Shown piece after piece: positions 2,900 through 7,415 of a stretch of 7,415 bases of DNA. Below the pieces are notes generated by a model that saw only the letters and a list, made by a program, of their open reading frames with translations, was not told where the DNA came from and did no database searches. Source of the DNA: a virus (lineage: Duplodnaviria; Heunggongvirae; Uroviricota; Caudoviricetes). Location of the stretch: the IMG/VR virus record IMGVR_UViG_2706794698_000011; one strand, given 5' to 3'. Position numbers and translations under genes: made by a program. Each line of letters begins with the position of its first letter. The first letter of the stretch is position 1.

Positions 2900-3280
2900 A
2901 TGACCGAGCGCATAGAATTTGTTTTACCTTACCCGCCGACGGTGAACACTTACTGGCGTCGTCGTGGCAGCACATATTTTGTATCAAAAGCCGGGGAGCG
3001 TTATCGCCGGGCAGTGGCGCTTATTGTTCGCCAGCAGCGGCTGAAATTAAGCCTGTCCGGAAGGTTGGCAATAAAAATTATTGCAGAACCACCGGATAAG
3101 CGCCGCCGTGACCTGGACAATATTCTGAAAGCGCCGCTGGATGCGCTGACGCATGCGGGGTTGCTAATGGACGATGAGCAGTTTGATGAAATCAATATCG
3201 TTCGTGCTCAGCCAGTATCTGGTGGACGTCTGGGGGTGAAGATTTATCCCATAATGCTTGAAGGGCAGGTCAAAAAATGA
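2900..3280 (+). CDS. rusA: RusA-family Holliday junction resolvase (126 aa)
   Basis: LPYPPTVN...PDKRRRDLDNILKAPLDALTHAGLLMDDEQ matches RusA conserved blocks including the catalytic acidic residues (DLDN, DD); start abuts the upstream stop. Confidence 0.85.
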   Translation: MTERIEFVLPYPPTVNTYWRRRGSTYFVSKAGERYRRAVALIVRQQRLKLSLSGRLAIKIIAEPPDKRRRDLDNILKAPLDALTHAGLLMDDEQFDEINIVRAQPVSGGRLGVKIYPIMLEGQVKK

Positions 3281-4026
3281 AACTGGAAGATTTACCGAAA
3301 TACTACTCCCCAAAATCCCCCGGCCTGACTGATGCATCGGCCTCAACGTCGAAAGATGCGCTGAGTATCACTGATGTGATGGCCGCGCAGGGCATGACAC
3401 AGAATCGGGCTGAGATGGGGGTTTCTGCGTTCCTTGGGAAAATGGGCATTAGTATGAATGACAGAGAGCGGGCAACAGAATTGCTGACAGAATATGCACT
3501 CAGTCGGTGTGATCGCGTGGCGGCGTTAAGAAAACTCCCGGCAGAAATAAAACCGGCAGTGATGCGTATTATGGCTTCGTATGCGTTTGAAGATTATGCC
3601 CGTAGCGCGGCGAGCAAAAAACANNNNNNNNNNNNNNNNNNNNNNNNNNNNNNNNNNNNNNNNNNNNNNNNNNNNNNNNNNNNNNNNNNNNNNNNNNNNN
3701 NNNNNNNNNNNNNNNNNNNNNNNNNNNNNNNNNNNNNNNNNNNNNNNNNNNNNNNNNNNNNNNNNNNNNNNNNNNNNNNNNNNNNNNNNNNNNNNNNNNN
3801 NNNNNNNNNNNNNNNNNNNNNNNNNNNNNNNNNNNNNNNNNNNNNNNNNNNNNNNNNNNNNNNNNNNNNNNNNNNNNNNNNNNNNNNNNNNATATGCGAG
3901 GTGACAAACCAGATAACACGCGCGTCATGGGAAAAAACAGTTAAGAAATTTTATGATGCGCTGGTGACCCGGTTTGATATTGAAGAAGCATGGGCTGAGC
4001 GGCAGTTAAAAAAGGTAACTAGGTAA
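3277..4026 (+). CDS. Q: Lambda-Q-family late antitermination protein (central 268 nt masked)
   Basis: N-terminus KYYSPKSPGLTD...DVMAAQGM and C-terminus KTVKKFYDALVTRFDIEE...KKVTR parallel lambda Q (FHSPKSP..., TVKPLYDALV...AVTR); ATGA overlap with rusA; frame is maintained across the mask 3624-3891. Confidence 0.8.
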   Translation: MKLEDLPKYYSPKSPGLTDASASTSKDALSITDVMAAQGMTQNRAEMGVSAFLGKMGISMNDRERATELLTEYALSRCDRVAALRKLPAEIKPAVMRIMASYAFEDYARSAASKKXXXXXXXXXXXXXXXXXXXXXXXXXXXXXXXXXXXXXXXXXXXXXXXXXXXXXXXXXXXXXXXXXXXXXXXXXXXXXXXXXXXXXXXXXXICEVTNQITRASWEKTVKKFYDALVTRFDIEEAWAERQLKKVTR

Positions 4027-4031
4027 CAAGG

Positions 4032-4059
4032 TTGATTTTTCCGGAATCTGTGGTAAATT
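4032..4059 (+). promoter_or_regulatory. Candidate late promoter (pR'-like) with probable Q-utilisation region just downstream
   Basis: -35 TTGATT (4032-4037), 16-nt spacer, extended -10 TGG-TAAATT (4051-4059), placed immediately after Q as in lambdoid phages. Confidence 0.5.
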
Positions 4060-4107
4060 CGTTATAACGATGGGCGTTTTATGCCTGACGTTAGAAGAGT
4101 TTCTACA

Positions 4108-4131
4108 ACCCGCCGCCGAGCGGGTTTTTTA
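4108..4131 (+). terminator. Intrinsic terminator (tR'-like) downstream of the late promoter
   Basis: Stem ACCCGC/GCGGGT (4108-4113 / 4120-4125) with a 6-nt loop, followed by TTTTTT. Confidence 0.75.
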
Positions 4132-4250
4132 TGACTGAAATCGCGTCAGTACAGTAAACGCGCTGGTGGCGGTGAATACCTGTCTTTCAGCTTGCTGGCT
4201 TTTTCGACAAGAGTTATTGGTGTGTCACGTTAACCGGAAAAGGAAAAGAC

Positions 4251-4448
4251 ATGCTAAAACAGCAGGATATGACAGAAACCGCCAGAGTGGTGTTTAATGA
4301 ATTAAGCGTTACCGAACCGGCGACAGTCGGGGAGATAGCGCAGAATACTTACCTTTCACGCGAACGCTGCCAGTTAATACTGACCCAGCTGGTTATGGCG
4401 GGTCTGGCAGACTATCAGTTCGGTTGTTACAGACGCCTTCCGCAGTGA
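4251..4448 (+). CDS. Small putative winged-helix DNA-binding protein (65 aa), possibly PapI/FaeA-like
   Basis: AAAGGAAAAG RBS; TVGEIAQNTYLSRERCQLILTQLVMAGLA resembles a helix-turn-helix recognition region; family resemblance is by eye only. Confidence 0.5.
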   Translation: MLKQQDMTETARVVFNELSVTEPATVGEIAQNTYLSRERCQLILTQLVMAGLADYQFGCYRRLPQ

Positions 4449-4461
4449 AGGCTTTTTTATT
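4435..4461 (+). terminator. Intrinsic terminator overlapping the stop codon of ORF 4251-4448
   Basis: Stem GCCTTC/GAAGGC (4435-4440 / 4447-4452), loop CGCAGT, followed by TTTTTTATTT. Confidence 0.75.
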
Positions 4462-4476
4462 TGTGGTAAATGGGCG

Positions 4477-4505
4477 GCTGGTGGGTGTTAGGGGCACCCA
4501 CCAGC
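4477..4505. repeat. Perfect 11-bp stem-loop carrying a Chi octamer on each arm
   Basis: GCTGGTGGGTG (4477-4487), loop TTAGGGG, CACCCACCAGC (4495-4505); no downstream T-run. Confidence 0.7.
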
Positions 4506-4858
4506 CATCTGCTCATGCGTTGGGTTCACAAGCAAACCTCAGGCCCACTGCTTTGCGCAAAAGCAGAATGAGCCTATCAGAGACAGGCTTAATGATCCAT
4601 GCTTAATANNNNNNNNNNNNNNNNNNNNNNNNNNNNNNNNNNNNNNNNNNNNNNNNNNNNNNNNNNNNNNNNNNNNNNNNNNNNNNNNNNNNNNNNNNNN
4701 NNNNNNNNNNNNNNNNNNNNNNNNNNNNNNNNNNNNNNNNNNNNNNNNNNNNNNNNNNNNNNNNNNNNNNNNNNNNNNNNNNNNNNNNNNNNNNNNNNNN
4801 NNNNNNNNNNNNNNNNNNNNNNNNNNNNNNNNNNNNNNNNNNNNNNNNNNNNNNNNNN

Positions 4859-5661
4859 CATCTGATATCGAAATCATGATGCGTGAACGCTTCAGTGTGC
4901 TGAACCATATTATCTGGGCGAAGCCGTCCGGACGCTGGAACGGATGCAACAAGGAAAGCCTGCGGGCGTATTTCCCCGCCACAGAGCGCATTCTGTTCGC
5001 GGAACATTATCAGGGGCCGTATCGTCCGAAAGATGCCGGGTATGCGGCGAAGGGCAGTGCACTGAAACAGCATGTGATGGCCCCGCTGATTTCTTACTTT
5101 CGTGATGCGCGAGCTGCCCTGGGGATAACGGCAAAACAGATTGCAGATGCCACAGGAAAGAAAAACATGGCGTCGCACTGGTTCAGTGCCGGTCAGTGGC
5201 AGTTGCCGAATGAAAGCGATTATCTGAAATTACAGGCGCTGTTTGCCCGGGTGGCAGAAGAGAAGCATCGGCGTGGTGAACTGGAAAAGCTCCACCACCA
5301 GCTGGTGGATACGTATACCTCACTGAACCGGCAGTATGCGGAGCTGCTGAGTGAATATAAACATCTGCGGCGGTATTTTGGCGTGACGGTGCAGGTGCCG
5401 TATACCGATGTGTGGACGCATAAACCGGTGCAGTTCTATCCCGGGAAACATCCGTGCGAAAAACCGGCAGAAATGCTGCAGCAGATAATCAGCGCTAGCA
5501 GTCGTCCGGGTGACCTGATTGCAGATTTTTTCATGGGGTTGGGTTCGACAGTGAAAGCGGCACTGGCGCTCGGGCGTCGTGCAATTGGCGTTGAGCTGGA
5601 GACTGAACGTTTTGAGCAGACGGTTCGGGAAGTACAGGATTTAGTCAGCCAGAACGGATGA
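4859..5661 (+). CDS. DNA amino-methyltransferase (N6-adenine/N4-cytosine type), 3' portion; N-terminus inside mask 4609-4858
   Basis: HPCEKP followed by DFFMGLGST (FxGxG AdoMet motif) near the C-terminus, the arrangement of beta-class amino-MTases; frame is open back to the mask with no start codon between 4492 and 4608, so the start is probably masked. Confidence 0.75.
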
Positions 5662-5700: not shown

Positions 5701-5776
5701 CGGCCCTTTAGCTCAGTGGTGAGAGCGAGCGACTCATAATCGCCAGGTCGCTGGTTCAAATCCAGCAAGGGCCACC
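5701..5776 (+). tRNA. tRNA with CAU anticodon, closest by eye to tRNA-Ile2 (lysidine) of the ileX type; tRNA-Met not excluded
   Basis: Full cloverleaf can be drawn: acceptor GGCCCTT/AAGGGCC, D-arm GCTC...GAGC, anticodon loop CTCATAA, T-arm GCTGG-TTCAAAT-CCAGC, 3' ACCA. Confidence 0.85.
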
Positions 5777-5783
5777 ATCACAT

Positions 5784-5818: not shown

Positions 5819-6148
5819 NNNNNNNNNNNNNNNNNNNNNNNNNNNNNNNNNNNNNNNNNNNNNNNNNNNNNNNNNNNNNNNNNNNNNNNNNNNNNNNNNN
5901 NNNNNNNNNNNNNNNNNNNNNNNNNNNNNNNNNNNNNNNNNNNNNNNNNNNNNNNNNNNNNNNNNNNNNNNNNNNNNNNNNNNNNNNNNNNNNNNNNNNN
6001 NNNNNNNNNNNNNNNNNNNNNNNNNNNNNNNNNNNNNNNNNNNNNNNNNNNNNNNNNNNNNNNNNNNNTTTTAAATACTTCACAATTCAGGCGGTTGACT
6101 GTTGTCTGGTTTGCGGGGAGTTTGTTAAAAGAAACTGGCATGGTGAAT

Positions 6149-6292
6149 CCCCCTGTGCGGAGGGGCAATCAGCGAGTAGGTATATGGGATAATCGCGGAT
6201 TCAGGTGCTGGTACTGAATTCACCGGGAGGCACCCGGCATCATGCAATGGCACATAGCGCCACTCTCCAGCCCTCTCCGGAGGGGCTTTTCT
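6149..6292 (+). other. GC-rich hairpin-dense non-coding stretch (candidate structured RNA or regulatory leader)
   Basis: Four local hairpins (6150-6165, 6197-6221, 6223-6237, 6270-6286), the last followed by CTTTTCT; no ORF over 30 codons on either strand. Confidence 0.3.
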
Positions 6293-6681
6293 GTGCCGGA
6301 TACATCACAGTTTCTGGAACCTTAGGTACTACAGTATCAGTCAGGGTGCTATATTTTCAGATGTGATGAAAGCCTGTCAGCAGGCAGGGCGTATCGGAAA
6401 TGACCCAGTAGAGAAAACNNNNNNNNNNNNNNNNNNNNNNNNNNNNNNNNNNNNNNNNNNNNNNNNNNNNNNNNNNNNNNNNNNNNNNNNNNNNNNNNNN
6501 NNNNNNNNNNNNNNNNNNNNNNNNNNNNNNNNNNNNNNNNNNNNNNNNNNNNNNNNNNNNNNNNNNNNNNNNNNNNNNNNNNNNNNNNNNNNNNNNNNNN
6601 NNNNNNNNNNNNNNNNNNNNNNNNNNNNNNNNNNNNNNNNNNNNNNNNNNNNNNNNNNNNNNNNNNNNNNNNNNNNNNNNN

Positions 6682-7243: not shown

Positions 7244-7399
7244 GATGTTGTCAGGGCGGCGCCGCCGTCAGATCTTGCGGAAAAGCTGACACATAAACTG
7301 AAAGAGGGCTGGCAGCCGTTTGGTAGTCCGGTGGCCATAACCCCTTATACCCTGAGGTGTACTGGCAATAGCGGACACTACCATTTGTTCTTTTTTTAA
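7244..7399 (+). CDS. 3' end of a hypothetical protein (5' part inside mask 6993-7242)
   Basis: Open frame from the mask edge to TAA 7397-7399 with enteric codon usage (...KLKEGWQPFGSPVAITPYTLRCTGNSGHYHLFFF); the last 14 codons lie in the inverted repeat. Confidence 0.5.
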   Translation, partial: DVVRAAPPSDLAEKLTHKLKEGWQPFGSPVAITPYTLRCTGNSGHYHLFFF

Positions 7400-7415
7400 G
7401 CAGCCATCTGATGAT
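7353..7415. repeat. Right copy of 63-bp perfect inverted repeat (partner 36-98)
   Basis: Exact reverse-complement match to 36-98; contains the last 14 codons and stop of the + strand ORF ending at 7399. Confidence 0.9.

Follow-up and report, generated by a model that had tools for sequence, protein, structure and literature searches.

How can a lambdoid prophage carry a DNA methyltransferase that is probably toxic to its host, and what is the small gene directly ahead of it doing there? The window, i.e. the whole 7.4-kb stretch of DNA analysed here, is the nin/late-regulatory region of a lambdoid prophage. Our reading, to which we give a probability of roughly 0.55, is that the late operon starts in it, with a cassette in which an adenine methyltransferase, toxic and probably non-specific, is insulated several times over: a Q-dependent and otherwise silenced unit, whose leader RNA would sequester the start codon of an enzyme that serves against restriction. 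The argument is built on sequence anatomy, synteny, a predicted fold, and a leader that is conserved and covaries. From 5′ to 3′, the window contains:

hok/sok locus, the first of the listed features, 5′ of the DUF968/HNH gene
1841–2899, DUF968/HNH gene
2900–3280, rusA
3277–4026, + strand, antiterminator Q gene (lambda-Q family; middle masked)
4032–4074, + strand, pR′-like late promoter (alignment to lambda pR′)
4107–4130, + strand, terminator 1, tR′-like (scan, folding, conservation)
4191–4228, + strand, invariant block CTTGCTG-N-AGAGTTA-..GT.TG.CA (conservation)
4251–4448, + strand, gene for a 65-aa winged-helix protein of the phrog_331 family (AGGA Shine-Dalgarno at 4241–4244)
4435–4462, + strand, terminator 2 (scan, folding, conservation), the 5′ border of the methyltransferase leader
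4463–4604, + strand, structured leader RNA of ~140 nt (conservation, covariation, folding, covariance model)
4470–4516, helix P1 of the leader, containing a Chi site at 4477–4484
4517–4533 pairing with 4587–4602, helix P2, covering the UGAUC and AUG of the methyltransferase
about 4538–4582, helix P3, enclosed by P2
4599–5661, + strand, gene for a DNA adenine methyltransferase of the M.EcoGI/GII family (PF01555; 4609–4858 masked)
5702–5777, + strand, tRNA with a CAT anticodon (ARAGORN; Rfam tRNA, 72.5 bits)
STnc100-type sRNA, the last of the listed features, after the tRNA

The order of Q, promoter, terminator, small gene, terminator and methyltransferase, as set out in a first-pass annotation of this DNA, is thereby confirmed at these coordinates. 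A scan of positions 3900–4620 returned four terminator-like sites, as compared to 0.8 expected. Several stretches of the window are N-masked, and the masks alter length: the Q gene spans 750 nt here versus 822 nt in an E. coli locus of 99.6% identity, and relative to that same locus the methyltransferase is shifted by 4 nt. Because the masks change length, reading frames across them carry no information. An apparent frameshift in the methyltransferase (the frame of the ATG versus the downstream frame) was dismissed for this reason, N-mask lengths being unreliable and nothing inferable from them.

What does the cassette encode? The methyltransferase start (ATG at 4599) was placed by homology, following the annotation of the 99.6%-identical locus, and the protein matches PF01555 (E = 9e-26), bearing out the initial assignment of a DNA methyltransferase gene downstream of the small gene. 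FFMGLGS is visible in the window enzyme and DPPY occupies residues 35–38 of the 99.6%-identical relative, placing DPPY N-terminal to FxGxG, with the DPPY taken from the relative as the window's own N-terminus is masked. Over its 261 visible residues, the enzyme shares 93% identity with its counterpart in phage 1720a-02, and it is via the latter that kinship to M.EcoGII is set: the 1720a-02 enzyme was reported to be ‘very similar’ to M.EcoGII, a non-specific adenine methyltransferase of E. coli O104:H4 (PMC5778455). Like M.EcoGI and M.EcoGII, the window enzyme is a prophage-borne, beta-class PF01555 protein of about 350 aa, and by analogy it is probably toxic and non-specific as well. M.EcoGI and M.EcoGII alike are silent in the lysogen and their expression harms the cell; the authors proposed that both are switched on at induction, with a probable role in defeating restriction (PMC5778455). 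The upstream small gene, the tandem terminators and the leader RNA are not described in that paper, nor is a mechanism for silence in the lysogen. Sequence comparison with solved structures returned only distant beta-class methyltransferases, metagenome and protein searches for distant relatives, meant to map the range of the leader, found only close ones (at least 75% identity), and among defence-system models only generic methyltransferase models matched.

The first layer of insulation would be transcriptional. The visible N-terminus of the window Q matches PF03589 (E = 2.7e-23), a family likewise matched by lambda Q and by the full-length Q of the 99.6%-identical relative. Immediately after Q, the promoter consists of a −35 element TTGATT (4032–4037), a 16-nt spacer, a TG at 4051–4052 and the −10 element TAAATT (4054–4059). 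Six nucleotides past the −10, AACGATGGG occupies 4066–4074, with transcription predicted to start near 4066. In direct alignment, the −10, the 6-nt gap and AACGATGGG are in register with lambda pR′, in support of the pR′-like promoter that had been proposed to follow Q. A strict consensus scan did not call this promoter, so its identification rests on homology to lambda. Positions 4066–4074 constitute a pause-type, −10-like element (AACGAT followed by GGG), and in lambda an AACGAT-type element acts as a sigma70-dependent pause element.

Terminator 1 has a stem at 4107–4126 (7 bp, five of them GC, with a 6-nt loop), followed by a run of six T residues at 4125–4130, and folds at −11.2 kcal/mol (z = −3.1). 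All 20 diverse loci compared have a GC hairpin with T7 at this position. Terminator 1 lies about 63–66 nt from the predicted start at 4066, in keeping with the tR′-like terminator that had been expected 50–70 nt downstream of the promoter. Termination here would yield a short RNA of ~65 nt, analogous to lambda 6S or StxS; short pR′ RNAs, including the StxS precursor, provide the context for such a transcript (PMC7547250). The window and the lambda Q/pR′/tR′ system thus have in common the Q Pfam family, the −10 TAAATT, the AACGATGGG pause element and a nearby intrinsic terminator, and share a predicted short constitutive RNA, which is, however, only ~65 nt long in the window (lambda, 194 nt; StxS, 258 nt). 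What the window adds is a second terminator and two accessory genes before the lysis genes. As a minor point, TGTGGTAAAT occurs both at 4049–4058 and at 4461–4470, which raised the prospect of a second pR′ remnant at the latter site; this was dismissed, as relatives carry TGTGAAAAT or TGTGGAAAT there and the critical −11 base varies.

Is this arrangement peculiar to one prophage? The first-pass annotation regarded it as an unusual late-region module, and that view does not hold. Of 5426 complete E. coli genomes, 3136 match positions 3893–4608, 1053 of them with at least 80% coverage. The small gene and the methyltransferase correspond to L23/L24 of phiP27, just upstream of the tRNAs and stx2e, and are present in many Stx2a and Stx2d phages as well as in phage 1720a-02. 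In the window, the tRNA at 5702–5777, annotated in relatives as tRNA-Ile/ileZ, is the first of a tRNA cluster that follows the cassette. Taking one representative genome per species, the module was found in Kluyvera, Salmonella, Klebsiella, Citrobacter, Buttiauxella, Scandinavium, Phytobacter, Enterobacter, Mixta, Erwinia and Plesiomonas. It is located behind several unrelated Q types, usually with holin and lysis genes directly after it. Similarity to known phages breaks at terminator 1, with Q and pR′ being mEp460-like and the sequence from 4107 onward resembling the Stx-phage cassette. The cassette is thus a mobile module that resides behind different Q/pR′ units.

Within this module, the association of the two genes is one-sided. 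The methyltransferase lies ~150 nt after the small gene in 22 of 23 genuine genome loci, the exception (L021) having kept the leader and lost the enzyme. Even the most distant homologues of the small gene (50% and 42% protein identity) are immediately upstream of a methyltransferase, which in the 42%-identity lineage is itself 60% identical to the E. coli enzyme. The proposed link between small gene and methyltransferase therefore holds across genera. Conversely, about 14 of 121 distinct methyltransferase copies with a readable upstream region have no small gene next door, it being deleted, replaced or separated by an inserted gene, indicating that the enzyme is independent of it. Found only with the enzyme (L021 aside), while the enzyme also occurs without it, the small gene is better understood as an accessory than as a gene with an independent role.

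Terminator 2 is formed by the arms GCCTTC (4435–4440) and GAAGGC (4447–4452), followed by T6, and TTTTTTATTT follows the stem. The TGA stop codon of the small gene (4446–4448) spans the loop and the 3′ arm. Of the strong terminator that had been described as overlapping this stop codon, presence and overlap stand, whereas the strength does not: at −8.9 kcal/mol (z = −1.4) its stability is modest, and in many relatives it is weak, with an interrupted U-tract. What argues for its being real is conservation. A hairpin of varying sequence occupies this spot in 92 of 92 distinct upstream contexts, in each of them directly preceding YUGUGRAAAUGGGC, with at least four U residues within the next 8 nt in 73 of the 92. 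The stems include GCCUUC/GAAGGC, GCCUCC/GGGGGC, GCCGCC/GGCGGC, CCUCGC/GCGGGG and GAGUCAUA/UAUGACUU, among others, and loci with unrelated upstream DNA have a hairpin as well. If the cassette comes straight after pR′, tR′ itself serves as the hairpin (L164, L180, L219). Its occurrence before the leader in all contexts makes a terminator upstream of the leader a constant design feature. In every copy that has the small gene, the stop codon of that gene falls within the hairpin loop; a ribosome terminating there would mask the 3′ arm, and termination would consequently be most efficient on untranslated or uncoupled transcripts.

These observations bear on the idea that the small gene is a moron, i.e. 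an autonomous promoter-gene-terminator unit, expressed in the repressed prophage, with a host-directed or superinfection role, that simply neighbours the methyltransferase. The gene is indeed bracketed by terminators, and the intrinsic terminator directly after it matches the anatomy of morons. However, terminator 2 was kept in two loci from which the small gene has been deleted (L166, L256) and thus belongs to the methyltransferase leader. Moreover, occurrence of the small gene only before this methyltransferase, or in L021 before the leader that was kept, is unexpected for a moron.

The second layer of insulation would act on the mRNA. The spacer between terminator 2 and the methyltransferase exceeds both genes in conservation: among 20 diverse loci, mean pairwise nucleotide identity is 0.82 in the spacer, 0.68 in the small gene, 0.71 in the methyltransferase and 0.58 in the 130 nt upstream. 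A 33-aa ORF at 4470–4571, the sole one in the window's copy, was considered and rejected; it is cut to seven codons in most relatives, which together with single-nucleotide indels argues that the spacer is non-coding. Rather, the spacer is predicted to fold into three helices. P1 pairs AAUGGGC-GGCUGGUGGGUG with CACCCACCAGCC-AUNN-GCUCAU; P2 is a long-range helix of (A)GGUCAC-AAGC with GCUU-AC-UGAUC(U), just 5′ of the AUG, and in the window's copy includes the AUG itself; P3 pairs GGCCCAC-GCUUU with AAAGC-GUGAGCC. RNAalifold and independent single-sequence folds of three sequences agree on all three helices, with folding energies of −54 to −65 kcal/mol (z = −3 to −5).

Comparative data support this fold. 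In 44 leaders below 96% identity, 94.7% of cells are paired, as compared to 30–44% when the partners are slid, and 10 base pairs show double changes versus 2.7 ± 1.1 in shuffles. A model-guided alignment of 57 distinct leaders gave seven double changes versus 1.2. P1 is the best-supported helix: a GG→AA change is matched by CC→UU in Plesiomonas, several swaps are found in L245, and in L352 GGCUGG/CCAGCC has become GGCCAG/CUGGCC. P2 has one clear covariation (AAGC/GCUU to GGGC/GCCC). That covariation is thin in P2 and P3 is explained by their near-invariant sequence, and this conservation could reflect something besides pairing. With a covariance model, each locus gave a single copy in 99 of 100 sources; every copy lay upstream of the enzyme and shared its orientation, and the window's copy (4463–4604) scored 129.9 bits. 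Against Rfam 15, the leader had no + strand match at E ≤ 1 in the window and none at E ≤ 5 in three relatives, the only match being to P26, on the opposite strand and at chance level. Among the papers searched, none describes it. The leader is hence a conserved folded RNA that is absent from Rfam and apparently undescribed. New, too, are the one-sided linkage of a winged-helix family to M.EcoGII-type enzymes and the constant design of terminator plus leader.

The leader is not obligatory. A lineage of 35% GC content (L349–351) has Q, tR′, the small gene, the terminator hairpin and the methyltransferase, with a spacer of only 73 nt and a canonical AAGGA Shine-Dalgarno sequence; no leader was found there, even with the covariance-model filters off. 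Its absence from this lineage means that the leader is not essential to the module, and we regard it as an addition confined to Enterobacterales.

Might the spacer instead be conserved as DNA, for example as a recombination or RecBCD signal in the form of a Chi cluster, or as an inverted repeat bound by a protein? A Chi site (GCTGGTGG) is part of the P1 5′ arm in most copies, its complement is found in the 3′ arm of E. coli copies, and Chi is over-represented in the window (10 sites versus 0.14 expected). Yet in L026, L245, L018, L256 and L352 Chi is lost and the hairpin is kept by compensatory changes, on which grounds Chi was dismissed as the selected feature of P1. In addition, conservation continues for 100 nt past Chi up to the start codon, and the conserved G-U pairs, which would be A-C mismatches on the opposite strand, make the fold specific to the mRNA strand. 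A DNA-level element therefore strikes us as distinctly improbable, and we return to a leader that works as RNA.

How, then, could this RNA affect the enzyme? The methyltransferase lacks a GGAG-type Shine-Dalgarno sequence and has an invariant UGAUC at −7 to −3. This motif would be complementary to the GAUCA close to the 16S rRNA 3′ terminus, with correct aligned spacing. UGAUC is exactly the stretch that is paired in the predicted P2, so that in any methyltransferase mRNA P2 would pair the initiation region from UGAUC to AUG. A comparable logic is found in the Gifsy-1 IsrK system (PMC4825925) and in RBS-sequestering leaders, where a structured RNA likewise comes after a terminator within an antitermination unit of a prophage and, by default, translation of the read-through transcript is off, as we propose for the window. 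The window leader has, however, no sequence or model similarity to either of these, and a trans-acting short RNA complementary to P2 was not identified.

Beyond constitutive sequestration, the leader might be a true switch: a riboswitch, or an element activated by RNase III or responsive to a protein, with the winged-helix protein or SAM opening P2. The enzyme uses SAM, P1 is with ~20 bp of the size of an RNase III substrate, and strong conservation extends to unpaired nucleotides, namely the AU of the P1 internal loop, the joining strands GAACC and CCUAUCAGAG, and the AGCGC loop. Nevertheless, no known riboswitch model in Rfam matches, no conserved alternative pairing was identified, and the leader is the same in copies that lack the winged-helix gene, which argues against the protein acting through it. 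On balance, we consider a switch doubtful. Equally a long shot is the fuller scenario in which the leader is an undescribed structured cis-regulatory RNA gating translation of a non-specific DNA/RNA adenine methyltransferase, with a ligand, a nuclease or a protein as the trigger, and the winged-helix protein is a dedicated regulator acting via CTTGCTG...AGAGTTA, both jointly forming a phage timing device for the safe carriage of a self-toxic enzyme.

Setting such triggers aside, the favoured reading of an insulated cassette suggests the following course of events. In the lysogen, pR′ would fire and transcripts would end at terminator 1, giving the ~65-nt RNA. Read-through or stray transcription would end at terminator 2, which abuts the leader, and P2 would restrain any methyltransferase mRNA that is still made. 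Upon induction, Q-modified polymerase would read through both terminators, and the winged-helix protein, with its good Shine-Dalgarno sequence, and limited amounts of methyltransferase would be the first late products. The enzyme would then modify progeny DNA, thereby blunting host restriction. Q dependence, silencing and the anti-restriction role we infer from lambda biology and from the work on M.EcoGI and M.EcoGII (PMC5778455).

If true, this would matter beyond the present prophage. Toxic, non-specific M.EcoGII-type enzymes are present in over half of sequenced E. coli genomes, and their silence in lysogens had no explanation; tandem terminators and a start-sequestering leader offer a testable answer. 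Their genes are directly upstream of the Shiga toxin genes in many Stx phages. There, the cassette is part of the same Q-dependent transcript as stx, and so the terminators and the leader are on the path of toxin transcription. The anatomy further contributes a putative new RNA motif, as well as a winged-helix family, so far uncharacterised, with ties to the enzyme. M.EcoGII-type enzyme is moreover a widely used chromatin-mapping reagent, for which a native off-switch may have practical value.

What is the role of the small gene? The 65-aa ORF, which had been put forward from the letters of the sequence, is a real gene: an AGGA Shine-Dalgarno sequence sits 6 nt before it, the protein matches phrog_331 (E = 1e-37) and has 334 homologous clusters, and differences at the three codon positions among 16 diverse copies (0.15/0.12/0.46) reveal purifying selection. 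The family is narrow: clustering 1.8 billion proteins at 50% leaves only 61 representatives, of which many are fragments. Its recognition helix, R-C-Q-L-I-L-T-Q-L, is essentially invariant, and we are confident that the protein is a winged helix. At about −1, its net charge is not typical of a protein that binds DNA. Solved structures searched by sequence contained no match to the protein, and our literature search returned no paper on the gene. Fusions of the winged helix to other domains were sought as well, and the two long matches proved to be low-complexity noise.

The protein had been likened to PapI/FaeA-type regulators. The winged-helix fold suggested by this resemblance is borne out; membership in the family is not. 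In the HMM search that had been recommended, phrog_331 was hit, and PF04703 (FaeA/PapI) was matched neither by the window's 65-aa protein at E ≤ 1 nor by any of 24 family members at E ≤ 0.1. Nor is there support for the idea of a small regulator and a methyltransferase paired in the manner of PapI, whereby the protein and the adjacent methylase would set heritable methylation patterns at target promoters. Size and fold are indeed similar to those of PapI, and the gene adjoins one for a DNA adenine methyltransferase. For a switch of the PapI type, however, the methylase must be site-specific, as Dam is, and there must be competition at defined sites. The partner here, 93% identical to the 1720a-02 enzyme, belongs to the non-specific M.EcoGII family, and a family that is non-specific and silent in lysogeny rules out a heritable switch of the PapI/Dam kind. 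The settings differ, too: PapI and FaeA operate in fimbrial operons with Lrp and Dam GATC sites, as compared to a prophage late operon here. Accordingly, we give a PapI-like function a very small chance indeed.

A further parallel may be drawn to the controller (C) proteins of restriction-modification systems: these, too, are small and bind DNA, their genes lie just upstream of one related to modification, and a role in timing is plausible. C proteins, however, form dimers with an Xre-type HTH, recognise palindromic C-boxes and regulate a restriction gene. The window protein is a winged helix, a terminator separates its gene from the methyltransferase, and in the loci examined we found neither an endonuclease gene nor a palindromic C-box. 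Most likely, the small protein regulates the cassette by binding nucleic acid and is an accessory inherited along with it, not a PapI-like factor. That it is specific to the cassette is a tentative guess of ours, which we favour over the unlikely case of an unrelated moron product.

If the protein acts on the cassette, where might it bind? The block at 4191–4228 is unchanged across 20 loci and, too, in the 35%-GC lineage, in which the small protein is only 42% identical and most else has changed. Its geometry is promoter-like (TTGCTG, 17 nt, TAYNNG, then ~30 nt to the ATG). The block could thus be a weak or factor-dependent promoter, well placed before the ATG, and as such would favour expression in the manner of a moron. 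Against this speaks the putative −10, in which an invariant G replaces the normally required final T and which leaves 6 of 12 positions in agreement with the consensus; a consensus promoter scan did not call the block. Weighing this with the terminator data above, we hold a moron to be unlikely. As an RNA, the block offers only a 6-pair helix of −2 kcal/mol, without covariation. Alternatively, it could serve the winged-helix protein, with its equally invariant recognition helix, as an operator, and among the sequences of the cassette it is the best candidate for the site at which this protein acts.

Between the small winged-helix gene (4251-4448, + strand) and the methyltransferase gene (4599..5661, + strand) lies a spacer of ~140 nt (the leader, 4463-4604) that is more strongly conserved than either of the two genes flanking it. 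Three helices are predicted within this spacer, and in the modelled fold the start region of the methyltransferase gene would be sequestered. As no Rfam family was matched by 4463-4604, we regard the spacer as a candidate new RNA motif.

In some copies (viral contigs L212 and L216), the winged-helix gene is separated from the leader by an unrelated inserted gene of ~110 aa (MSMKDYEIDLNGVD...), located some 50-380 nt before the leader, and in these copies a fresh hairpin is again found directly 5′ of the leader. Upstream of the small gene, an invariant block (4191-4228; CTTGCTG...AGAGTTA..GT.TG.CA) is kept even in the distant 35%-GC lineage. The spacing of its elements is promoter-like, but the putative -10 is poor.

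Database phage similarity switches at 4107, the first base of terminator 1 (4107..4130, + strand): mEp460-like phages match the Q gene and the pR'-like promoter, and Stx-phage cassettes match the DNA from 4107 on. Terminator 1 seems to mark the point where modules were joined by recombination.

Runs of N (3625-3892, 4609-4858, and others) do not preserve the true length of the masked DNA. Measured against a 99.6%-identical relative, Q in the window falls short by 72 nt, and the offset in the masked copy of the methyltransferase gene is 4 nt; since masks alter length, apparent frame changes across them carry no meaning.

The window holds 10 copies of Chi (GCTGGTGG) in 7.4 kb, distributed over both strands, compared to 0.14 expected. 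An overlapping inverted pair (CCACCAGCTGGTGG) is contained within the methyltransferase gene, and nearly all related loci show the same Chi density as the window. These sites and two further elements are as follows:

Chi sites at 863, 2008, 2066, 2472, 2524, 4162, 4477, 4498, 5295 and 5301, both strands
938-1263, hok/sok-type toxin-antitoxin locus (Rfam sok and a Hok-like ORF)
6109-6298, sRNA family STnc100 (full-length match, 122.5 bits, E = 3e-27)

The sok match (938-1113, 112 bits) overlaps the Hok-like ORF, which ends at 1263; downstream of this locus, an isrK-like match (1272-1353) is weak and below threshold (25.8 bits). The STnc100 match sits 3′ of the tRNA region, in the place that stx takes up in Stx phages. 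Finally, the window ends (36-98 and 7353-7415) form a perfect inverted repeat of 63 nt, spanning the upstream region and first 10 codons (MVVSAIASTP) of two genes in opposite orientation.
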